Assembly: GCA_963836235.1 (NCBI GenBank)
Contig: CAWIIP010000002.1
Coordinates: 1,472,001-1,536,000, forward strand
Direction: 5' to 3'
Length of the DNA stretch: 64,000 nucleotides
Source: an uncultured Pseudomonadota bacterium
Lineage (GTDB): Bacteria; Oederibacteriota; Muellerivitia; Muellerivitales; Muellerivitaceae
Numbering within the stretch: position 1 is the stretch's first letter; every line of letters starts with the position of its first letter. A program made the translations under genes and the position numbers. Below are positions 3,659-25,948 of the stretch, piece by piece. The notes under the pieces were generated by a model, which ran no database searches, had not been told where the DNA came from, and saw only the letters and a program-made list of their open reading frames with translations.

Positions 3659-3692
3659 ATGTCCTGGTGAGAAACTTGAATAGGAGTCGCTG

Positions 3693-4121
3693 ATGAATTC
3701 ACAATGGGCTTTTGTTTTATTGACCACCCTCTCTTTTGGTTTTTTTAATATTTTCATCCGGGCGGCGGGGCCGAAGATCGGCGGTATTTTAGGGCCCTTG
3801 TTCGTGGAGGGGTTCGCGGCGGCGGTTCTCCTGCTGTTTTTCCTTTGGCGGAAATGGAACGGGTCGGTGGAGCCGGTGACTTCCCTGGGAGCGGCCTATT
3901 CCATGGCCGCCGGCTTTTGCGCCGCCGCCGGTTCGATCGGGTTCTTCGTCGTCTTTTCCAAGGGAGGGATGCTTTCAGCGGCCGGTTCCTTTGTCTTGAT
4001 CGGAAGCACGATGCTGACCATCTTGGGCGGCTTTGTCCTTTTTAAGGAACCGGTCAACGCCTACCGTGCCGTGGGAATCCTATTGGGGCTTGTCAGCCTT
4101 TACCTATTGCGCATGGATTAA
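3693..4121 (+). CDS. EamA/DMT-family small transporter
   Basis: About 5 TM helices, C-terminal G..LFKEP....GI.L motif; RBS AGGAG. Confidence 0.8.
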   Translation: MNSQWAFVLLTTLSFGFFNIFIRAAGPKIGGILGPLFVEGFAAAVLLLFFLWRKWNGSVEPVTSLGAAYSMAAGFCAAAGSIGFFVVFSKGGMLSAAGSFVLIGSTMLTILGGFVLFKEPVNAYRAVGILLGLVSLYLLRMD

Positions 4122-4169
4122 AAAAGTCGGTGGATTCTTTGTTAGGACCAACGAAGCGTTCTGTAAAGT

Positions 4170-4197
4170 TGTCCACGACGGGGACCCTTCGTGGACA
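4170..4197. repeat. 28-bp palindromic cassette repeat R1
   Basis: TGTCCACGACGGGGACCCTTCGTGGACA. Confidence 0.95.
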
Positions 4198-4230
4198 GGT
4201 AAATTTAATGCGGGACTAAAGGAGAAACAA

Positions 4231-4536
4231 ATGCTGGAATTGAGGCCCACTTGCGAGAATTGCAATAAACCTTTGCCGCCTGAATCCCTAGAAGCGAGGA
4301 TTTGTACCTACGAGTGCACATTTTGCTCGGCTTGCGTGGAGCTTCTTGAAAATGTATGCCCCAGTTGCGGCGGTGGATTCTGTCCCAGGCCCATCCGGCC
4401 AAAAACCAATTGGAAGGGCGATAATTATCTGGGGAAAGACCCGGCGAGTACTAAGATCAAGCACCGCCCCGTTGATTTAAAAGAACATGCCCAGTTTTCT
4501 CTTCCGATTAAGAATCTGCCGCCTGAAAAAAGATAA
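4231..4536 (+). CDS. DUF1272 family Cys-rich protein
   Basis: MLELRPTCENC...ARICTYECTFC..C....NVCP.CGG...RP.RP signature; AAGGAG RBS before ATG 4231. Confidence 0.9.
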   Translation: MLELRPTCENCNKPLPPESLEARICTYECTFCSACVELLENVCPSCGGGFCPRPIRPKTNWKGDNYLGKDPASTKIKHRPVDLKEHAQFSLPIKNLPPEKR

Positions 4537-4543
4537 TGGGCGT

Positions 4544-4562
4544 TGTCCACGATGGGGACCCA
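4544..4562. repeat. Repeat R2, left part (5' exon of intron)
   Basis: TGTCCACGATGGGGACCCA; the remaining TCGTGGACA is at 6493-6501. Confidence 0.93.
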
Positions 4563-6492
4563 GCGCGCCAAGAAAGCTGTTGTTCATCCAGTCGGCTGAA
4601 ATGTGCCGACCCAGACAAAATTTGGCAGTCTGGTAGCAGGGAGCCGAATCGGGCAGGGTAACCTGCCAGGTTCAAGCGGCTCGACAAAGGGCGGCAAAGC
4701 GCCCGATGCGAAAGGACGGGTCGTAACACGTGTGAACCTAGGTGTAACCTCGTAACGTCGAGATTGAGGAGGGTGACCCTTTTGGGTCTTGGGGAAACCA
4801 GTATTCCATGCGGGAGCCAGAAATACGCATGGGACTGCTTCGGGGTAACAGGGGCGACACGTCCAGACGGAGAACAACGGAACTTGGGAGACCCATAGGG
4901 AAGCACAAGGTACCTGCCTATAAGTCTAAGCGGCGAAATGGCAGGGAGAGCCTATGGGAGTCAGACAAGCCTACAGTAGCTATGAGGGCTAGGACTAAAC
5001 CTAGTCAGAGCAAAGGGGCTTGACCTGGGTAGAGCTTGGCCAGGAGAGAGGGACAAGGGATTGGCGATGAGCCTAGTAACCCTACAAAAAGTTCAGGATC
5101 TTCAGCACAAGCTAGCTGGGAGGAGTAAGTCAAAGCCGAAAGAACGTTTCTACAGTCTCTACGACAAGGTGTGCCGGAAAGAGGTTCTGTGGGAAGCATG
5201 GCAGAAGGTGAAGGGCAATGGAGGTTCCGGAGGAGTGGACGGGGTAACGGTGGAAGGTATAAAGGCCACCGGAGAGAAGGAATACCTGCGGGCACTCTGG
5301 ACGGAGCTGAAGGAAAAGGAATATAAGCCATTGCCGCTCAGGCGGGTTTGGATACTAAAGGCCAACGGGAAGAAAAGGCCCTTGGGGATACCGACGGTGA
5401 AAGACCGGATTGTACAGCAAGCGGTACGATTCGTTATGGAGCCGATCTTCGAGGCGCACTTCTCGGAAGTGTCCTTTGGATTCAGGCCAGGCCGGGACTG
5501 CCATCAGGCCATCACCAGAGTGGTGACATACCTAAATTGGGGTATGGTGAACGTGGTTGAGACGGACATTGTGGACTGCTTCGGAAGTATCCCACATGGA
5601 AGGCTGTTGAAAGCGGTGGCTCGCAGGATAGCCGACAAAGGTATCCTGAGGGTGATCCGGCAATGGCTGAAATGCGGGGTGATGGAAGAAGGGCAGTTCC
5701 AAGAAACGACCACGGGAACGCCTCAAGGAGGGGTGATTTCGCCGCTTCTGGCGAATATTTACCTGGATGCGCTGGATCAACTTTGGAAGAAGCGGAAGAT
5801 GGATTCCAAAAGCGGATACAACGCCCAAATGGTCAGATACGCCGATGACATGGTAATTCTCACGGATCGGAGCCCCCGGGAGGCGGAAAGGCTGCTGAGG
5901 GAAACCTTGGGCAGACTGGATTTGAAGCCTCACCCGGAAAAGACGCGGGTGGTGAACGCAAAGGCAGGGGATTTTAACTTTCTGGGGTTCAATTTCCGAC
6001 AGCGGAAGAATCCCCGAACAGGGAGAAGCCAATGCCTGTTTCAACCCTCGCAGAAGGCCCAAAAGAATGTGCGGGAGAAAATCAGACTGGCTACAGCAAG
6101 CCCGGAGTTAAATGAACTGGGTAAGGTGGTCAGAGAGAAAGTTAATCCCATTCTGAGAGGGTGGGTGAATTACTTTCGGATCGGAAACTCCAGCAAAACT
6201 TTTAATAATCTCCGGAACTTTGCAAAGAAGAGAGTCCTGCGATTTATTCGCAGGAGGAAGAAACAAAGCGGGCCAGGTTGGGACAGGATCAGCGAGGATT
6301 TCCTTTATGGGAAGCTGGGCCTGTTTAAGGAATACCGGGTGAAACGGTTTTCTCAACCCGCTGTGGCTTAGACGAAGGGCCTCCGGTGAATACCCTTGGA
6401 AAGCCGTATGCGGGAAAACCGCACGTACGGTTTGATGAGGAGGCGTTGGAAACGTGCCGGTTATCCGGTGACGCGCCAGTGCTTTACTCTAT
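4563..6492 (+). mobile_element. Complete group II intron inserted in repeat R2
   Basis: 5' GCGCG; EBS1 TGGGTC (4783-4788) in a stem-loop is complementary to IBS1 GACCCA; D5 AAGCCGTATGCGGGAAAACCGCACGTACGGTTT (6401-6433); D6 with bulged A; ends ACTCTAT. Excision restores a perfect palindrome. Confidence 0.93.
5067..6371 (+). CDS. ltrA: Group II intron reverse transcriptase/maturase without HNH endonuclease domain
   Basis: GVDG, RPLGIPTVKDR, SFGFRPGR, GTPQGGVISPLLANIYL, VRYADD, FLGF, domain X RGWVNYF; ORF ends before any En domain. Confidence 0.96.
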   Translation: MSLVTLQKVQDLQHKLAGRSKSKPKERFYSLYDKVCRKEVLWEAWQKVKGNGGSGGVDGVTVEGIKATGEKEYLRALWTELKEKEYKPLPLRRVWILKANGKKRPLGIPTVKDRIVQQAVRFVMEPIFEAHFSEVSFGFRPGRDCHQAITRVVTYLNWGMVNVVETDIVDCFGSIPHGRLLKAVARRIADKGILRVIRQWLKCGVMEEGQFQETTTGTPQGGVISPLLANIYLDALDQLWKKRKMDSKSGYNAQMVRYADDMVILTDRSPREAERLLRETLGRLDLKPHPEKTRVVNAKAGDFNFLGFNFRQRKNPRTGRSQCLFQPSQKAQKNVREKIRLATASPELNELGKVVREKVNPILRGWVNYFRIGNSSKTFNNLRNFAKKRVLRFIRRRKKQSGPGWDRISEDFLYGKLGLFKEYRVKRFSQPAVA

Positions 6493-6501
6493 TCGTGGAC
6501 A
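6493..6501. repeat. Repeat R2, right arm (3' exon)
   Basis: TCGTGGACA directly after the intron 3' end. Confidence 0.9.
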
Positions 6502-6506
6502 CTTAA

Positions 6507-7148
6507 TTGACGGAAAGGGCATTTATGCATGACCGGGAACTAAGAATAAAAATGGTAAGTTTTGTCAAAGAATCGCCAAGCGCGACCCTTTTGCTTTGTT
6601 TTATGGCCGGCATTGTCATCACGCGAACGCTTACTACTTTTGGTTTTGGCTTTAATTATTTCTTTGCGTTTTTATTGCTTTCCGGCTCATTCTTGATTTT
6701 TAGGGTATTGAATTTAAACAGAACGGCTGTCCTTTTAAGCCCCGATTCCATCCAATTTTTCGAATCGATTCCCGTGCAAAGTTTTATCCTGGCTACGAAA
6801 AAAGTGAATGCTAAATGGGAGGATGTGACAAAAGTTCAAACCTATGAAACGTTGATGCAAAAATGGGAATATCGGCAACCTAAAAGTCCCGCTTTTGGGG
6901 GGGCGGTATGGGGTTCGGAGATTCAGTTGAATGATTTGTTTATATTAAAAACTAAACTTTACGTGAGGATTGCGGACAGTTTGAAAGAAAAAAGTTTTAC
7001 GATTTCTATGACTAATGAAAAATATCCCGAATACCTGATTTATTTAAAAAACAAACTGGATCCTTCGAAAATGGATTCGAAAACGATTGAGCTGCAAAAT
7101 CCAAAAATATTGATGGACGAGATGATGAAACGAAAAGTTTTTATTTAA
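6507..7148 (+). CDS. Hypothetical membrane protein (AT-rich cassette cargo)
   Basis: Two N-terminal TM helices plus a soluble domain; true start may be ATG 6523 region or later. Confidence 0.65.
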   Translation: MTERAFMHDRELRIKMVSFVKESPSATLLLCFMAGIVITRTLTTFGFGFNYFFAFLLLSGSFLIFRVLNLNRTAVLLSPDSIQFFESIPVQSFILATKKVNAKWEDVTKVQTYETLMQKWEYRQPKSPAFGGAVWGSEIQLNDLFILKTKLYVRIADSLKEKSFTISMTNEKYPEYLIYLKNKLDPSKMDSKTIELQNPKILMDEMMKRKVFI

Positions 7149-7155
7149 GCAATAT

Positions 7156-7183
7156 TGTCCACGGCGGGGACCCATCGTGGACA
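7156..7183. repeat. 28-bp repeat R3
   Basis: TGTCCACGGCGGGGACCCATCGTGGACA. Confidence 0.95.
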
Positions 7184-7206
7184 CCTAAGAAAGCAATAAT
7201 CAGTAC

Positions 7207-7253
7207 TTGCCACGGAGAAACTTTGGGCATAAAATGTACATCATCATGTACAT
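7207..7253 (+). promoter_or_regulatory. sigma70 promoter with TA autoregulatory operator
   Basis: TTGCCA-N17-TAAAAT overlapping two ATGTACAT palindromes (7234-7241, 7246-7253). Confidence 0.75.
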
Positions 7254-7265
7254 AAGGAGTTGCTC

Positions 7266-7547
7266 GTGACACCAACTAGCTTTACCATTGCACAGGCCCG
7301 AATCCATTTTCCCGGGCTCATCCACGATGCGGAAAAAGGGAAGCCGGTGGAGATAACCCGGCGAGGGAAACCGGTTGCCGTCTTGGTATCGGTGGATGCC
7401 TACCGGCATTTGACCGCACCCCGTCCCGGGTTTTGGGAGGTTGTTTCGGCCTTCCACGGCCGTATCAAAGCGAGTAAGGCCGGTTTGGAACCTAAAGATC
7501 TCCGGGGAATCCGCGAAACCGGACCCGGAAGAGAATTTAAGTGGTGA
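7266..7547 (+). CDS. Phd/YefM antitoxin
   Basis: FTIAQAR..F..LI....G.PVEITRRGKPVAVLVS; GTG after AAGGAG. Confidence 0.9.
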   Translation: MTPTSFTIAQARIHFPGLIHDAEKGKPVEITRRGKPVAVLVSVDAYRHLTAPRPGFWEVVSAFHGRIKASKAGLEPKDLRGIRETGPGREFKW

Positions 7548-7975
7548 AGCCCCGGTACTTGTTAGACACCAATGTCGTTTCGGAAGCAGCCCGTGTAAAA
7601 CCAAATCCCAATGTGATGAGAAAACTTGAGCGGCACAAAGACGAAATGGGAATCGCAAGTATTGTTTGGCATGAACTCGTCTTCGGCTGCGACCGCTTGC
7701 CACCCTCCGAAAAACGGACCCTTTTAGAGGAATTCCTTTCGGAATTAGCAAACTCCTCCATGTTAATTTTTCCTTATGACACGGAAGCGGCTGCTTGGCA
7801 CGGCCGGGAGCGTGCCCGTTTATCCAGACTGGGACTTACACCGGCATTCGCGGATGGGCAGATTGCTTCCATCGCGAAAGTCCATGATTTGATCCTGGTC
7901 ACCAACAACATCCGGAATTACCGTCATTTCGATCAACTGAAGATGGAGAATTGGCACGGCATGGCTAAAAATTGA
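7541..7975 (+). CDS. vapC: PIN-domain VapC toxin
   Basis: YLLDTNVVSE, EL..G, ADGQIASIA, LVTNN; overlaps antitoxin. Confidence 0.93.
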   Translation: MVKPRYLLDTNVVSEAARVKPNPNVMRKLERHKDEMGIASIVWHELVFGCDRLPPSEKRTLLEEFLSELANSSMLIFPYDTEAAAWHGRERARLSRLGLTPAFADGQIASIAKVHDLILVTNNIRNYRHFDQLKMENWHGMAKN

Positions 7976-7983
7976 AAAATGCT

Positions 7984-8011
7984 TGTCCACGATGGGGACC
8001 CGTCGTGGACA
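7984..8011. repeat. 28-bp repeat R4
   Basis: TGTCCACGATGGGGACCCGTCGTGGACA. Confidence 0.95.
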
Positions 8012-8076
8012 ATCATTTCTGCCACAAAAGGGTTAATATAAAGACGCCGTAAGTTGTTGCGTTGGAGAGGTGAATT

Positions 8077-8571
8077 ATAAAAAAAATATTATCAGGAATT
8101 TTAATATTTTTTGTTGGAGCTTTTGCATTCTACTTCCCTAGCTTTGTGGGTCACGCTTTTTCCGGGAATGGGGAATTTTCGAAACCAGAATTTTTTTTAA
8201 TATTCATTTGTCCTTTTATAACTTCACTTTTAATGCTTCTTTGGTTTAGAAAAAAATTCGTTTTAATTCCCAAAGGGTTAATTTCCTTAATTTTTATTTT
8301 GGGGATATGGATTTTGGGAACATTTGCAACTATGGCGAGCGCTAGCTTAGCAGGCGCAGGGTTTACAAAAATAGCTTCATTTTCTGATTGGAAAGATTTG
8401 ATCGTTCTAACTCTATGTTTTCCTCTTTCGACATTTGAGTGCACTACTTATGATGGAACATTAGGGGCATTGTTTGCTTTTTCTCTGTTTGTTCTTATCT
8501 GGATATTGATTGATGTTATTGTTTTAGTCAAAAAGGGCGGCAAAAAGAAGTTAGCCATTGATCGAACATAA
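8077..8571 (+). CDS. Hypothetical integral membrane protein (AT-rich cassette cargo); probable ATA start
   Basis: Frame is open upstream of GTG 8146 to ATA 8077 (IKKILSGILIFFVGAFAF), behind GGAGAGGTG; 4-5 TM helices. Confidence 0.6.
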   Translation: MKKILSGILIFFVGAFAFYFPSFVGHAFSGNGEFSKPEFFLIFICPFITSLLMLLWFRKKFVLIPKGLISLIFILGIWILGTFATMASASLAGAGFTKIASFSDWKDLIVLTLCFPLSTFECTTYDGTLGALFAFSLFVLIWILIDVIVLVKKGGKKKLAIDRT

Positions 8572-8656
8572 ATTTCTTCATGCGCTCCTTTATGGTCGAA
8601 TTACCTGGGATTTGTTGGTTCGTAAATCGGAATGGGGTCTTTGGTCATTTAGAGCT

Positions 8657-8684
8657 TGTCCACGACGGGGACCCACATTGGACA
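8657..8684. repeat. 28-bp repeat R5
   Basis: TGTCCACGACGGGGACCCACATTGGACA (right arm partly diverged). Confidence 0.9.
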
Positions 8685-8698
8685 AGGAAAATGTTTTA

Positions 8699-8746: not shown

Positions 8747-9034
8747 ATGGCCATGACGAAAGCCCTAAAAACCAAGGAAGAACGCATTGAACTAAGGGTA
8801 AGACCCCAGGATAAGCGATTGCTGGAAAAGGCGGCTCAGGCCCAGGGTTTGAGCCTGAGTTCCTATCTCGTGACGCGGTCCCTCCATGCGGCCCAGGAAG
8901 ACGCGATCCCGGTTAAAACCTATGTTCCGCCTAAACGGGACGTGGACTTATTCCTGAGGCTTCTAGAAAACCCTCCCGCGCCTAACGAAAAGCTTAAGGC
9001 GGCGGCACGGCGCTACCAAAAAGAAATATCCTGA
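8747..9034 (+). CDS. DUF1778 (TacA-like RHH) antitoxin
   Basis: KEERIELRV....K.LLEKAA...G.SLSSY...F..LLENPP.PNEKL. Confidence 0.92.
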   Translation: MAMTKALKTKEERIELRVRPQDKRLLEKAAQAQGLSLSSYLVTRSLHAAQEDAIPVKTYVPPKRDVDLFLRLLENPPAPNEKLKAAARRYQKEIS

Positions 9035-9043
9035 TTTTCCGTT

Positions 9044-9562
9044 ATGACAGGCCCAAAATGGAAGTTTGTGCCCATCACAGAAAAACCGGACCTCGAATGT
9101 TTTGATTCCGGCATTCCTGAACTCAATGATTATCTGAAAAAATACGCGGGCCAGAACCACCGCAAGGGGTTAGGAAGCACTTATGTCCTCGTTCCGGCCG
9201 AAGGAGAACCGGTTGCGGCTGGTTATCACACCTTGAGCATGGCTCAGGTGGAATTGCATTCGCTGCCGGAATCCCAACGCAAAAACCTCCCGAAGTATCC
9301 GGTCCCCGCGGTCCGATTGGGACGCCTTGCCGTTGACCGCCAATGGCAAGGAACTGGATTGGGGGAGATATTACTGATCGATGCCATCCGCCGGTCTGTT
9401 GCCGCCGTCCAATCGGTGGCCGCGAAGTATATGATCGTCGATGCCAAAAACAAAAAGGCTGAGGAGTTTTACCACCGATACGGGTTTCAACCCTTTGAAG
9501 GCGGTTCGCACTCATTAGTGGCAGCCATTGATACCTTAAAAGTACTTTTTACGAAAGGTTGA
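9044..9562 (+). CDS. GNAT acetyltransferase toxin (TacT/AtaT-like)
   Basis: FDSG...LNDYL, P.YPVPAVRLGRLAVD..QGTGLG, VDAK..A..FY..YGF. Confidence 0.92.
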   Translation: MTGPKWKFVPITEKPDLECFDSGIPELNDYLKKYAGQNHRKGLGSTYVLVPAEGEPVAAGYHTLSMAQVELHSLPESQRKNLPKYPVPAVRLGRLAVDRQWQGTGLGEILLIDAIRRSVAAVQSVAAKYMIVDAKNKKAEEFYHRYGFQPFEGGSHSLVAAIDTLKVLFTKG

Positions 9563-9569
9563 AAAATCC

Positions 9570-9597
9570 TGTCTAAGACGGGAACCGCATTGAATGG
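9570..9597. repeat. Degenerate left-half copy (R6) of the 28-bp repeat
   Basis: TGTCTAAGACGGGAACCG matches TGTCCACGACGGGGACCC at 14/18; lies 7 nt after a stop codon, as R2 and R3 do. Confidence 0.55.
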
Positions 9598-9616
9598 CTT
9601 AAAAAAAGAAGAAAAA

Positions 9617-11811: not shown

Positions 11812-12549
11812 ATGACCATGGAAATTGACTACAGCAAGCCCATAGGCCGAATCGCCGTTGAAATCAGCGGGGCGGTATCGCTCTTTGAAAAATACGGGAT
11901 CGATTATTACCGGGAAGCTGAAAAGGAACTTGTAACGGCTTGTTCCATTGCCGGGGCACCCTTGGATCAGGTCGAATCCGAGCTGAAAAAAATCAAGGAA
12001 CCCATACCTGCCCTTTGGTATCAGCAGGAACCCGACTGGTCGCGGGAAACCATGGCCTCCTTGATCCACTACATCGTCCAGGTCCACCACACCAAAGCCC
12101 GTTCGCTTTTGGATGACATCGTGAGGGAGTTAGACCTCTCGCGGGAAACGAAACAAGAGCCCGGGAGATTGCAGGTCCTTCGGAACCTTTTCTTGGAGTT
12201 TGAGGCCGAACTTCGCAATCACCTGTTGGAGGAAGAAGAAACCATATTCCTTTATTTAATCCATACCGAGAGGGCTTTGGAAAAGGGCCAAGCCCCGGGG
12301 AATCTCGCGCCCATGGAAAAGGGCTTTTCCAACTCGATCCGCGAGATTCTTTTCGAACACCGGTTCATGGACAGGGGGTTCGAACAGATTGAGAAGCTCA
12401 TGCACTTGATCAATGACGAAGCCTCGGCGGTATCCTTGAAAAACCTGGTGGAAGCGTTGTCGGCTTTAAAAAAAGACAATGAAAAGCATGTCCACCTGGA
12501 AAACAGAAAACTTTTCGGGCGCAGCGCCCAACTGGGGCTGATGGATTAA
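11812..12549 (+). CDS. RIC/YtfE/ScdA-like di-iron hemerythrin protein, copy 1
   Basis: ScdA_N-like FEKYGID, LI.YI...HH, HL..EE..F, EH, HVHLEN. Confidence 0.8.
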   Translation: MTMEIDYSKPIGRIAVEISGAVSLFEKYGIDYYREAEKELVTACSIAGAPLDQVESELKKIKEPIPALWYQQEPDWSRETMASLIHYIVQVHHTKARSLLDDIVRELDLSRETKQEPGRLQVLRNLFLEFEAELRNHLLEEEETIFLYLIHTERALEKGQAPGNLAPMEKGFSNSIREILFEHRFMDRGFEQIEKLMHLINDEASAVSLKNLVEALSALKKDNEKHVHLENRKLFGRSAQLGLMD

Positions 12550-12653
12550 AAAAGGCCGCTGAATAAGTAGACCCCCTCGGTTCTTCCCTAAAAGAAATTA
12601 AACTCCACCCCACCCAAAAATCATGAATCAAAACGATGTAAATGACACCCCTT

Positions 12654-12669
12654 TATGATCCCCGTCATA
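12654..12669. promoter_or_regulatory. Putative Crp/Fnr-family box
   Basis: TATGA-N6-TCATA palindrome about 60 bp upstream of RIC copy 2. Confidence 0.4.
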
Positions 12670-12730
12670 GGGAGTAGGAAAAAGGGGCGATATCTTTTTT
12701 AAAAGACAGGGAAGGACCCGTTAAACCAAA

Positions 12731-13459
12731 ATGGAAATAGACACTACCAAACCCATCCGCCAAATCGCCGTTGAAGTCAGCGGGGCGGCCACTCTCTTCG
12801 AGAAATTCGGGATCGATTATTACGGCGAGGGAAACCGGGAACTGAAGGTGGCTTGTTCCATGGTCGGCGTGCCTTTGAGCCATGTCGAGACGGAATTGAA
12901 AAAGAGATACACGATTCCCGCCTCCTGGCGCGAGCGGGAACCCGATTGGTCGCGGGAAAACATGGCGTCGCTGATCCATTACATCATTCATGTCCACCAT
13001 GTCAAAACCAGGGCGCTGTTGGACGACATCGGGCGGGAACTGGCCCTTTTGCGAGACAGCCACAAGGAACGCGAAAGATTGGATGTCCTCCGAAATCTTT
13101 TCCAGGAAATCGACGACGAACTGAGGGACCATATGTTGGACGAGGAAAAAGTGATCTTCCCTTACCTCATTTACGCCGAGAGAGCCTTGGAGAAGGGCGA
13201 GGTGATTGGGGACGTTCTTCAGATGAACAAGGGTTTTTCCGACTCGATCCGCGAAATCCTTTTTGAGCACCGTTTCATGGACCGGGGATTTCAAGAGATG
13301 GATAAGCTTATGTACCTGATCAATGACGAAAGCGCGGGAGATTCCCTGAAAGCCCTGGCGAAGGCGGTGGAGGCCCTCATCCAAGACAACGAAAAGCATA
13401 TCCAACTGGAAAACAACAAACTCTTCCGCCGCAGCGCCCAACTGGGGCTGATGGAATAA
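12731..13459 (+). CDS. RIC/YtfE/ScdA-like protein, copy 2 (tandem paralog)
   Basis: Same motifs (HH, HMLDEE, EH, HIQLENN.LF); colinear with copy 1. Confidence 0.82.
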   Translation: MEIDTTKPIRQIAVEVSGAATLFEKFGIDYYGEGNRELKVACSMVGVPLSHVETELKKRYTIPASWREREPDWSRENMASLIHYIIHVHHVKTRALLDDIGRELALLRDSHKERERLDVLRNLFQEIDDELRDHMLDEEKVIFPYLIYAERALEKGEVIGDVLQMNKGFSDSIREILFEHRFMDRGFQEMDKLMYLINDESAGDSLKALAKAVEALIQDNEKHIQLENNKLFRRSAQLGLME

Positions 13460-23350: not shown

Positions 23351-25948
23351 TTATCGGACCAACAAAACCCTGGCCTGGTGGACACCCGTGGGTTCGACCA
23401 GCCGAAGGATATAGGTGCCGCTGGCCACCAGATCACCGTACTTATTTTTTCCGTCCCAAGTGAGCTGAAACGATCCCGCCGGTTGATTGGCGTAATTACC
23501 CAGGGTTCGGATGTGCTCACCGGCCGAGTTGTACACCATCACCGAACAGGCGCCCGGAAAGCAAAGGAAGGAGGTTAAAGTCAGGGGCTGGCCGGCTTGC
23601 GGGGTAAAAAGGTTCAGCGAAGCGGAAAGTCCGCTTTGGCAGATGGGGGTGGGGCTGAAAGTCGGTGTAAAGGTGAGTGTCGGTGTGGGACTGATGGTGG
23701 GGGTGGGCGTATTGACGGCGAACTTCATGACGAAGGCATCCTCCGTTCCTCCCCCGTAATTCACTTGAAAGGCTCCGGCCGTGGTCGGAAAATTTCCGCT
23801 GGTATAACCCGTTAAATAAATGTTTTCCGAAGGGTCCAGGGCCACTTTGTAACTGGAGTCTTCCCCTGATCCCCCCAAATAAGTGGAATAAATTAAAGCC
23901 GTTCCCAGGGGATTGAAAATGGTCATAAAACCATCATAGGTCCCGCCGCCATAAACCGTCTGGTAGGCGCCGGCGGTGGTCGGAAAACTTCCCGAGGTCA
24001 AACCAGTCGCATAGACGTTCCCCGCGGGATCCACGGCGATACCGCCCCCTTCGGTAATGCCCCCTCCACCCAAGTAAGTCGAAAAAATAAGGGCTGTTCC
24101 GTTGGGATTCAATTTGGTAACGAAAACTTCCACGCCACCCGGGAAAACCGTCTCATAGGCACCGGCGGTGGTGGGGAAGTTTCCACCCGTGGAACCAATG
24201 ATGTAAGCGTCTCCGGCGGCGTCCAACGCGATGCCATAAGACGCGTCGTTATTGTTTTCCCCCAGGTAGGTGGAATAGACCAAGGCGCTTCCGGCCGGGT
24301 TCAACTCAGTGACAAAAACGTCCCAACTACTCGTGGCTCCATAAACGGTCTGATAGGCTCCCGGCGTGAGGGGGAAATCCGGGCTGGTCGTGGGACCTGT
24401 GATATAAACGTTTCCGGCGGCATTCACCGCAATGGCTTCCGCCATATCGTTGCCGCTTCCCCCGACATAGGTGGAATAAAGCAACGCGCTTCCAGCGGGG
24501 TTTAATTTGGTGACGAAAGAGGACTGAACACCCGCGGCAACAGTCTGAAAAGCGCCGGGCGTGACGGGAAAAGATCCAGTGAAATAGCCGGTGACATAAG
24601 CGTTTCCCGCCCCGTCCACCGCGATGCCGTTGGCCTGCTCGTTGCCGCTTCCCCCCAGGTAGGTCGAATAAACTAGGGCATTTCCGGCGGGATTCAGTTT
24701 GGCCACGAAAGCATCGGAGGTCCCGCCGCCGAAAACCGTTTGATAGGCTCCGCCCGTGGTGGGGAAGTTAGAGCTATCCGTTGCGCCCGTCACATAGGCA
24801 TTCCCGGCGCCATCGATGGCGACGCCAAAGCCATCATCTTCTCCATTTCCACCGAGATAGGTTGAATAAACCACCGCGCTTCCCGTGGGGTTTAACTTCG
24901 TCACGAAGGCATCCGAGGTTCCACCTTTAAAGGCTGTTTGGAAGGCTCCCCCTGTGGTTGGAAAGTTGGGGCTGTCGGTGGTACCTGTCACGTAAGCGTT
25001 ACCCAAAGCGTCGGCCACGATATCCATGCCATTATCATCCCCGCTGCCGCCCAGATATGTGGAATAGGCCAGGATCGGGTCGATCACCAAGGGCTTAGCC
25101 CGGTCATAATTTTGAACCTCAAAACCCGCCTCGTCCCGGCCGAGCTTCACGAACTTTCCCTGGATTTTCGTTCCCTCACCTTTCTCAACCTGGTAAACCG
25201 CCGGAACCTGAAAGGTGAGGGCGCCGGTTTTAGTTTGAAGCACCAAAGCGCCGCGAGAGTCGACCTTCACGAGTTTCGCCCCGGTGAACTTCAGCCGAAT
25301 GGCTTTCGGGTCCGCCCCCGGTTTCACCCAGAAGTCATACTCCAGCTTCCTTTGGTCGCCGTAGTAAAGCATATCGACGCCGGGATAAAGTTCCTCCATC
25401 TTGACCTGGGCGTACTGGGCCACGCCCTTTCGCCAATGGTCCGGGTTATTGCCGATGAAATAGTTGGATTTGCCTTTTAGTTCTTCCAGCCCCTCCATGC
25501 GGCATAAGCGGTTTGCGCCTTGAAAGCGCATCCGAATAACACCGGAGGGGGATGTTTGTAAAGAAGCGGTTTTTTGATGGTGGTGGCCAGCCGAAAAACT
25601 TTTGGACGGTGTGGAGCGAAAACGGAGGACAGCCTCCGCCGGGGTCAGGAACAAATGATAGTCCCGGCCCTTGGCCAGGAACCGCACCGAGGGATCGGTC
25701 TGGCCCTCGTTTTTTTCGAAGCTCATCGGCAAGTCCCCATAAGCCCGGAAAATCCTCTTGCGGGCCTGGATGTCGGGCCTAAAAGACGAACCCTTGGGCG
25801 AAGGGGATGAGGAAACCGGGAGGCGGTCCAGGGAAAAGGCGAGGAGACCGGCGGGTTGGGCCAGAAAACAAGACAATAGGCATCGCAAAAGTAATTGAAA
25901 GCGTTTGGGGGCCTTGATTAGAAAAAAGGAAGGTAGGTCTAGCGGCAT
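23351..25948 (-). CDS. Secreted SBBP beta-propeller protein with PT linker and FlgD-like Ig tail
   Basis: FEKNEGQ N-domain, YF.GN...W, repeated YSTYLGGSG.D....IAVD..GNAYVTG, tail VYNSAGE.IR.L...WDGKN..G..VASG.Y. Confidence 0.9.
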   Translation of the reverse strand: MPLDLPSFFLIKAPKRFQLLLRCLLSCFLAQPAGLLAFSLDRLPVSSSPSPKGSSFRPDIQARKRIFRAYGDLPMSFEKNEGQTDPSVRFLAKGRDYHLFLTPAEAVLRFRSTPSKSFSAGHHHQKTASLQTSPSGVIRMRFQGANRLCRMEGLEELKGKSNYFIGNNPDHWRKGVAQYAQVKMEELYPGVDMLYYGDQRKLEYDFWVKPGADPKAIRLKFTGAKLVKVDSRGALVLQTKTGALTFQVPAVYQVEKGEGTKIQGKFVKLGRDEAGFEVQNYDRAKPLVIDPILAYSTYLGGSGDDNGMDIVADALGNAYVTGTTDSPNFPTTGGAFQTAFKGGTSDAFVTKLNPTGSAVVYSTYLGGNGEDDGFGVAIDGAGNAYVTGATDSSNFPTTGGAYQTVFGGGTSDAFVAKLNPAGNALVYSTYLGGSGNEQANGIAVDGAGNAYVTGYFTGSFPVTPGAFQTVAAGVQSSFVTKLNPAGSALLYSTYVGGSGNDMAEAIAVNAAGNVYITGPTTSPDFPLTPGAYQTVYGATSSWDVFVTELNPAGSALVYSTYLGENNNDASYGIALDAAGDAYIIGSTGGNFPTTAGAYETVFPGGVEVFVTKLNPNGTALIFSTYLGGGGITEGGGIAVDPAGNVYATGLTSGSFPTTAGAYQTVYGGGTYDGFMTIFNPLGTALIYSTYLGGSGEDSSYKVALDPSENIYLTGYTSGNFPTTAGAFQVNYGGGTEDAFVMKFAVNTPTPTISPTPTLTFTPTFSPTPICQSGLSASLNLFTPQAGQPLTLTSFLCFPGACSVMVYNSAGEHIRTLGNYANQPAGSFQLTWDGKNKYGDLVASGTYILRLVEPTGVHQARVLLVR

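Follow-up and report, generated by a model that had tools for sequence, protein, structure and literature searches.

We analysed a 64,000-nt stretch of the genome of an uncultured bacterium of the family Muellerivitaceae (hereafter the window), which carries an array of small genes separated by copies of a palindromic repeat, family D9, here considered as a candidate recombination site. The window covers positions 1472001–1536000 of contig C2 in a genome of 3.97 Mb and 5 contigs; we call this genome G000, the genomes of relatives G0xx, contigs C and metagenome contigs L. The full repeat is a 30-bp site, TTGTCCACGACGGG-GA-CCCGTCGTGGACAA, and pattern searches found five copies of it on the + strand of the window, starting at 4169, 4543, 7155, 7983 and 8656 (R1 to R5), with no chance copy in 100 dinucleotide shuffles.

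The first site directly follows a co-oriented open reading frame (ORF) of 142 aa (3693–4121, +) that belongs to no Pfam family; the unit at 3682–4136 is matched in G047, G067, G050, G051, G053 and G048, apart from its window neighbours, and in G067 it adjoins the TacA/GNAT cassette described below. Site R1 (4169–4198, +; TTGTCCACGACGGGGACCCTTCGTGGACAG, with GA at 4183–4184) comes from the pattern search, as do R3 to R5, and is followed by cassette 1, a DUF1272 zinc-ribbon protein (4231–4536, +; PF06906, E 1e-24) whose cassette is also found in G049 and G063. Site R2 is split by a group II intron (4563–6492, +). Positions 1–20 of the site (4543–4562, +), located by sequence reading and the repeat search, form the 5' exon, and positions 21–30 (6493–6502, +), placed by sequence reading and the Rfam intron limits, the 3' exon. 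Cassette 2 is a 213-aa ORF of no family (6507–7148, +). Site R3 (7155–7184, +) precedes cassette 3 (7260–7975, +), in which Pfam recognises a Phd/YefM antitoxin (7260–7547) and a PIN toxin (7541–7975), and site R4 (7983–8012, +) precedes cassette 4 (8146–8571, +), a membrane-like 141-aa ORF of no family. After site R5 (8656–8685, +), cassette 5 (8747–9562, +) holds, again by Pfam, a TacA-like antitoxin (8747–9034) and a GNAT toxin-like acetyltransferase (9044–9562), and a sixth, degenerate copy of the site, found by reading the sequence, follows at about 9570–9599 (+; limits approximate).

When the two exons (4543–4562 and 6493–6502) are joined, R2 has perfect 13-bp arms around GA, as an original prediction made from the letters of the window had stated; the arms of R1, R3, R4 and R5 contain 1, 2, 1 and 4 mismatches, respectively, and the right arm of R5 is of a variant type, ACATTGGACAA. 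The prediction also held that GA is kept in one orientation in all five copies, and this extends to the genome, where GA is present in 67 of 71 good copies and always runs along the direction of the cassette genes. Its 13+2+13 geometry fits R2 better than the family as a whole: the symmetry reaches 14+2+14, with an outermost pair that is weakly kept (T1 in 49 and A30 in 38 of the 71 sites), and the perfection of R2 is exceptional, perfect 13+2+13 sites numbering 9 of 71 and perfect 14+2+14 sites 3. The arm variation it described applies to positions 20–24 of the right arm, which are freely variable, and not to the left arm, which together with the central GGGGACCC (55 of 71 sites) is nearly invariant, positions 2–19 being almost fixed. 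Changes in one arm are not compensated in the other, pair 11:20 being Watson–Crick in 33 sites, G–T in 8 and another combination in 30. A query with the right arm turned up no more than two or three sites whose left arm is poor, so the lopsided conservation is not merely an effect of ascertainment.

Across G000, a 30-bp search allowing at most 7 substitutions returned 70 site copies, and a query with the left arm and core gave 85 matches that form about 11 arrays plus singletons. Each array runs in one direction, except for four stray matches on the opposite strand. The direction mostly follows the sign of the GC skew, with exceptions on C1 at 223 kb and 236 kb, a pattern that is uninformative on mechanism. 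With at most 1 mismatch, an 18-mer of the site occurs in 29 of the 30 other genomes of the family, covering 17 genera, at 0–100 copies per genome; sites are thus present in 30 of the 31 family genomes, G058 having none. The other 68 genomes of the phylum essentially lack the 18-mer, the exception being a three-site array in G043, a member of the same order.

The segments between sites have the layout of gene cassettes. The longest ORF is co-oriented with the site in 46 of 49 inter-site segments, its stop codon mostly lying <20 nt before the next site, and site spacing in G000 ranges from 234 to 3923 bp with a median of 763 bp. Judged by ORF coordinates, all 11 arrays of G000 begin directly after a co-oriented ordinary gene, and no dedicated cassette promoter was seen in arrays that thus follow host genes. 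This is an array of the integron type, with co-oriented promoterless cassettes that each end in a site, and not a CRISPR array, since the segments carry ORFs and lack regular spacers of 25–50 bp. Pfam assignments of 77 array proteins included 14 toxin–antitoxin components, GNATs, immunity-type proteins (SUFU, WapI, DUF4265), HAD hydrolases and small barrels; 27 of the 77 fell in no Pfam family, and PADLOC assigned no defence model to any of 53 cassette proteins. The cassettes move singly, also between genera. The Phd/PIN unit (7155–8012) recurs at 99% identity, bounded by sites and in a different context, in G047, which belongs to another genus, and at 90–93% identity in G067, G070, G054 and G044; the TacA/GNAT unit is found in 9 other genomes at 79–91% identity; a 1245-bp cassette is identical in two arrays of G000, and one of 386 bp is 100% identical between G052 and G048.

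The last of these shared cassettes locates the exchange point most sharply. Identity between G052 and G048 runs through ...CTGTCCACGACGGGGA and then stops, the next letters being GGCGTAG... versus CCCGCAT..., which places the junction at site positions 16|17, exactly after the A of GA. A unit carrying a Cas1 gene stands behind a site in 5 contexts, in which the rare right arm TTCGTGAACAA is constant and the left arm takes 4 different forms; its junction must therefore lie between positions 11 and 20. Lone left halves found elsewhere in G000 end directly after GGGGA, and at array ends the left half and core are often retained next to a right half that is variant or unrelated. A systematic pairing of cassettes over all loci gathered yielded 3 informative pairs only. 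Overall the junction is central and is sharpest at 16|17, as would be expected if a serine recombinase cut at GA.

A Pfam scan of the array flanks yielded a candidate enzyme, which we call SR278. Its gene (G000:C2:163827–164663, outside the window) encodes 278 aa and ends 33 nt before the last site of the array C2:164697–168037, to which it is convergent. With domain limits that rest on Pfam, the protein comprises PF00239 (E 4e-22) and PF07508 (residues 187–271) and has no PF13408; its best NCBIfam matches are CcrB and CcrA, both below cut-off, and it aligns to the first 272 residues of a 515-aa paralogue in G000. A truncated pseudogene is ruled out by orthologues of the same length, low dN/dS and invariant catalytic residues. 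Intact orthologues of equal length and 74–81% identity are present in G054, G052, G048 and G067, and all 19 close clusters (74–100% identity) measure 275–283 aa, with PF07508 present and PF13408 absent; longer relatives are all at most 62% identical and mostly have the PF13408 zinc ribbon. The catalytic motif YVRVSS is invariant in 26 sequences, as are R18, S20, D89, R90 and R93. SR278 is under purifying selection, with dN/dS of 0.08–0.16 in 7 unsaturated pairs, and a ratio of about 0.1 together with a stop codon conserved over 4 genera and 19 clusters argues for a working gene. A plasmid collection contained no relative above 31% identity. The five genomes with intact SR278, among the 31 of the family, have 66, 53, 78, 27 and 81 sites; the other 26 have a median of 6.5, and only G070, with 100 sites and SR278 remnants, exceeds 49.

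The gene is linked to the site. Eleven SR278-type genes or remnants reach the C-terminus (5 intact, and 6 remnants in G048, G070 and G072), and in 10 of them a convergent site lies 45–72 nt past the end of the match. None of the six loci of larger paralogues (5 full-length and one 378-aa frame at a contig start) has a site. In metagenome contigs, a convergent site accompanies 3 of the 5 SR278 orthologues with enough downstream sequence, and a real site was found at 0 of 73 loci of distant relatives. Of a second platform in G000, beside the array C1:399390–403329, only the final 125 bp of the SR278 gene are left. Next to SR278 the right half-site is of a constant variant form, CCCAAAAGGAACAC for instance occurring six times; if each insertion exchanges the left half of a primary site, this is what one would expect. 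Both empty and occupied forms of this site exist: contig L161 carries an unbroken variant palindrome, TTGTCCCCTAGGGG-GA-CCCTGAGGGGACAA, beside an SR278-type gene, and in G000 the left half of the same variant opens the array C2:164697–168037 and the right half closes it, with three cassettes between. The flanks of the two loci are homologous, 274 bp in L161 versus 4.4 kb in G000.

We consider it likely that these arrays belong to an integron-like gene-capture system run by a serine recombinase, probably SR278, for which the 30-bp palindrome serves as double-stranded crossover site. The length of the arms is consistent with this. In the solved complex of a Listeria-phage integrase with attP (PMC3783163), the recombinase domain contacts about 13 bp beside the crossover and the zinc ribbon reaches positions 16–24; an enzyme lacking the zinc ribbon should thus need arms of only 13–14 bp, as found. 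The serine recombinase that the original prediction proposed from the geometry gains support in this way from the central junctions, the linkage of SR278 to the site, the empty and occupied sites and the agreement of domain contact with arm length. A crossover within the central dinucleotide, on which that prediction hinged, agrees with the sharpest junction, directly after the A of GA, one deviating case being taken up below.

In mechanistic terms, SR278 would be a derivative, 275–283 aa long, of the large serine recombinases that has kept the catalytic and recombinase domains and lost the zinc-ribbon and coiled-coil part. One dimer would occupy each site, with each subunit over about 13–14 bp, and two sites would pair; all four strands would then be cut at the central GA to leave 2-nt overhangs, and the half-sites would rotate and rejoin. 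GA is not self-complementary, so rejoining would be confined to sites that point the same way, and the orientation of cassettes would thereby be fixed. A cassette would consist of site positions 17–30, one or two promoterless genes and positions 1–16 of the next site. Direct sites would release it as a circle, and the circle could re-enter any site, its genes presumably being expressed by read-through. SR278 would sit in a fixed platform beside a primary site analogous to attI, and arrays without it would be the counterpart of integrase-less attC clusters.

Several observations weigh against this proposal. Intact SR278 is found in just 5 of the 31 family genomes, although 30 of them have sites, and G070, at 99% completeness, combines 100 sites with SR278 remnants only; this pattern is similar to that of integrase-less attC clusters, yet it leaves room for another enzyme. 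We know of no zinc-ribbon-less derivative of the large serine recombinase family that is active. Small serine recombinases usually need accessory sites, and none is evident at the 30-bp sites, where no search aimed at them was made. As regards the exchange point, a strictly central junction would not lead one to expect that the site upstream of the Phd/PIN cassette has the same rare G at position 10 (7 of 71 sites) in 3 of 4 contexts, and the Cas1 unit ends in a different, 37-bp repeat and not in a left half-site. As regards the linkage, the eleventh SR278-type gene, in G054, adjoins a right half-site only, and on contig L163 the site lies at +126 in the other orientation. Finally, no circular or excised cassette forms were seen in assembled contigs of public runs; a joint 4187->7156 was considered as an excision product and set aside as too weak, being found in one contig with 21 letters on its short side.

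Part of this evidence could be turned into a reading that keeps a real double-stranded crossover site and makes SR278 a mere bystander truncated by the array, the active enzyme being another one or one supplied in trans from a mobile element. In its favour, 26 of 31 family genomes are without intact SR278, many SR278 copies are N-terminally truncated remnants, and the protein resembles the front half of a recombinase family of about 520 aa. We nevertheless regard this reading as unlikely: a bystander would hardly keep the low dN/dS and conserved stop seen over 4 genera and 19 clusters, a platform would be expected to show both the linkage to a fixed right half-site and the empty palindrome beside the gene, and no other recombinase family tested tracks the arrays.

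The geometry alone is not decisive, since the site can also be read as 11-8-11, the layout of tyrosine recombinase core sites, with 11-bp arms around the nearly invariant 8-bp spacer GGGGACCC. The most plausible enzyme would then be an Xer-like one (G000:C1:328834–329895), and the cassettes would resemble Xer-dependent dif modules. Of the recombinases, this gene alone has orthologues in 31 of the 32 genomes of the order, and it covers the XerC and XerD models over their full length. Dif modules with toxin–antitoxin cargo are known from Acinetobacter plasmids and have much in common with the present cassettes, as they are small, often encode toxin–antitoxin systems, use sites of the 28-bp class and have moved between replicons. 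The XerC/XerD sites of these plasmid modules reportedly have a 6-bp spacer and alternate in orientation, whereas the sites described here are chromosomal and all direct, none alternating, with a junction at a 2-bp core. The partners joined at 16|17 differ at positions 17–19 (GGC versus CCC), and a 6–8-bp exchange between them would have a mismatched overlap, making them a poor substrate. The Xer-like gene is also present in G058, a genome without sites, and no site, palindrome or array lies beside it; nor did we find a dif-like variant that keeps the arms. That the site is not the chromosomal dif follows from the small G068 array, which is about 450 kb away from the GC-skew switch. Given these mismatches, an Xer-type system is quite improbable.

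As for the Xer-like recombinase itself, G000 has a single gene of 352 aa, which scores below the XerC and XerD equivalog cut-offs, and no XerC/XerD pair. Against the integron integrase model it aligns in two pieces, with about 30 residues missing between them. In G068 the GC-skew switch falls between two sampled positions, and the orthologue is located in that same interval. Xer-like genes also occur in tandem, as pairs or trios, at G070:C97:110447–112226 and on G049:C134, G044:C34, G051:C8, G057:C1 and G058:C33, where they resemble recombinase-in-trio elements.

The alternative offered with the original prediction, that an IntI-like or HUH (RAYT/IS200-type) enzyme uses the site as a folded hairpin of single-stranded DNA, in the manner of attC or REP, has fared poorly, and we think it very unlikely. 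Single strands of the site can fold, the DNA hairpins ranging from -6.1 to -14.2 kcal/mol; array architecture and cargo are integron-like; and the site is the homing target of a group II intron, much as attC is for the group IIC-attC introns (PMC3001079). Against this, none of the 32 genomes of the order has an integron integrase above the 265-bit cut-off of TIGR02249, the best score in G000 being 40.9 bits. Variation in the arms is uncompensated and the sequence is conserved over 17 genera, unlike in attC sites, which are described by R and L boxes and keep their structure; the site is also about half as long as the shortest attC sites are usually said to be. The HUH/RAYT-like 320-aa genes, of which G000 has three, are multi-copy, phylum-wide (68 of 99 genomes) and unlinked to sites, and this family was not found in the site-rich G070 (100 sites), G054 (53) and G044 (41). 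In G051, some ten near-full-length copies of the 320-aa HUH gene with a DnaA-C-like tail are 68–72% identical to the query and carry 1–2 in-frame TGA codons each, which could reflect a pseudogene burst or recoding.

Other recombination genes of G000 were rejected as the cassette enzyme. Cas1 is a single gene beside one array, present in 6 of the 31 family genomes and 96–100% identical in five of them, and is thus cargo. Six paralogous 370-aa tyrosine integrases have a tRNA gene at 4 of their 6 loci and are ordinary island integrases, and the full-length 515-aa serine recombinase has no sites nearby. When the repeat is profiled against recombinase families, as had been suggested with the original prediction, IntI, HUH, Cas1 and the tRNA-island integrases do not track it, and intact SR278 occurs in just the 5 genomes noted above.

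We also think it very unlikely that the palindrome has a structural or regulatory role, as an RNA hairpin, a terminator or a REP-like element, with shuffling by homologous recombination only. Sites do lie directly after stop codons, and 30 bp of identity could allow rare homologous exchange. However, the stem lacks a T-run behind it and shows no compensating changes that would preserve it, exchange occurs between canonical sites and variant palindromes that share little beyond GGGGACCC, and lone left halves stop at one fixed base.

Returning to the proposed serine recombinase system, its closest functional likeness is to integrons, the classic means by which bacteria store and exchange individual genes, and to the integrase-less attC clusters known as CALINs. 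As in these, the cassettes are small, co-oriented and densely packed, with cargo of toxin–antitoxin systems, acetyltransferases and uncharacterised proteins; one platform of recombinase gene and primary site stands against many arrays without; cassettes are common to several genera; and the site is colonised by a group II intron. In place of the tyrosine recombinase IntI, however, there would be a serine recombinase, and in place of attC, a folded site usually given as 55–140 nt, a 30-bp duplex palindrome with a 2-bp core. The recombinase gene lies at the array's 3' end and is convergent with it, whereas that of the integron is divergent at the 5' end, and there are about 11 arrays per genome. 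The system thus works like an integron yet has neither IntI nor attC, and to our knowledge every integron described so far relies on one tyrosine recombinase and on sites folded from a single strand.

The nearest published relatives are the CcrB-type tandem islands, namely the SCC/SCCmec elements, which integrate at rlmH, and the ssrA islands of Dehalococcoides. They share the recombinase superfamily and consist of units stacked between short direct repeats, some without a recombinase. The Dehalococcoides islands integrate at ssrA, and 16 of those identified carry a 540-aa recombinase with accessory genes (PMC3146451). The present units differ in having a median spacing of 763 bp and no recombinase, in lying between identical palindromes at many loci, and in their candidate enzyme lacking the zinc ribbon.

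The site itself resembles those of small resolvases and invertases (res site I, hix, gix), with inverted arms of 12–13 bp and an asymmetric 2-bp core that sets polarity. Small serine resolvases and invertases are about 180–200 aa long, end in a C-terminal helix-turn-helix and need accessory sites or an enhancer; SR278 differs in having PF07508 in place of the small helix-turn-helix. From large serine recombinases, usually about 450–700 aa, it differs in lacking the third domain, PF13408, and, where those act one-way on an attP of about 50 bp and an attB of about 40 bp, all sites here belong to one 30-bp family.

We incline, if only slightly, to the wider proposal that a whole bacterial family runs an independent, convergent counterpart of the integron, in which promoterless cassettes are captured, released and reordered at a 30-bp duplex site with a GA crossover by a serine recombinase of 278 aa that lacks the zinc ribbon and is fixed beside a primary palindromic site, with up to 100 sites and a dozen arrays per genome and exchange between genera. 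SR278 would then be the smallest member of the large serine recombinase lineage to act on two identical short sites without a directionality switch. Full-text literature searches of open-access papers and bioRxiv found no description of such a system. If the proposal is true, cassette capture evolved more than once, the system would explain how accessory genomes are built in an uncultured soil and peat lineage, and a very small recombinase with a short, symmetric, orientation-defined site would be a candidate tool for genome engineering. With a candidate enzyme named, the assay of GA mutations can now be carried out directly.

The intron in R2 is 1930 nt long and matches Rfam families RF02005 (group-II-D1D4-6) at 4600–4855 and RF00029 (D5-D6) at 6399–6492. 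Its ORF (5061–6371) encodes a reverse transcriptase/maturase with RVT_1 and GIIM domains (TIGR04416, 412 bits) and no endonuclease domain. A second copy, 100% identical and at the same site position, lies at C1:223030–224988, so that both full intron copies in G000 (2 of 2) are inserted between site positions 20 and 21. In the domain I loop, the predicted exon-binding site EBS1, UGGGUC (4783–4788), could pair with GACCCA (4557–4562) at the end of the 5' exon. By analogy with the group IIC-attC introns of attC (PMC3001079), the intron would be a secondary parasite of the site; unlike those introns, it is inserted in the sense direction of the cassettes.

Short matches to the intron's domain V (window 6398–6456, 84–88%) recur at cassette-like spacing within arrays of relatives, at G067:C11:109261, 110573 and 112282 and in many places in G048, which suggests that many sites of G067 and G048 are occupied by other, perhaps ORF-less, group II introns. 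In three sites of G000, C2:427140(-), C2:1231169(+) and C2:1943049(+), an insert of 22–46 bp is found exactly at the intron insertion point, after GGGGACCCA. It starts with TTCGACA... and ends in ...GGCAGGCC or ...GACAGGCC, and the right arm is still recognisable after it in 2 of the 3.

The Cas1 gene mentioned above is solitary (G000:C1:431820–432857; TIGR00287, 251 bits) and is followed by a 37-bp repeat, CCTGCACATGCCTGTCGCAAAAAGGATAGTGTGCAAC, directly after which the sequence diverges. G000 holds 11 copies of the 37-mer, 10 of them identical, at positions including C4:58813, 59821 and 60778, C2:917797, 917902, 919266 and 189969, and C1:380527, 405292 and 431426. Among relatives, copies number 25 in G067, 11 in G051, 6 in G048 and 5 in G049, with none in the Cas1-less G070. 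The 37-mer arrays run in the same direction at a spacing of 0.07–12 kb, mostly about 1–4 kb, which is not CRISPR size, and the repeat itself often overlaps ORF ends; it may belong to a second, Cas1-linked insertion system. The cumulative GC skew of G000:C2 has its minimum, a possible replication origin, at about 920 kb, near three of the 37-mers (917.8–919.3 kb) and a gene for a 425-aa tyrosine recombinase (929190–930467).

Elsewhere in the window, positions 23756–24967 hold tandem repeats of about 195–200 nt (families D1, D4 and D6), probably reflecting a repeated protein domain. At 11812–13459 there are two neighbouring paralogous genes, 910 bp apart and with 70–79% DNA identity, the first of which (11812–12549) is hemerythrin/ScdA-like.

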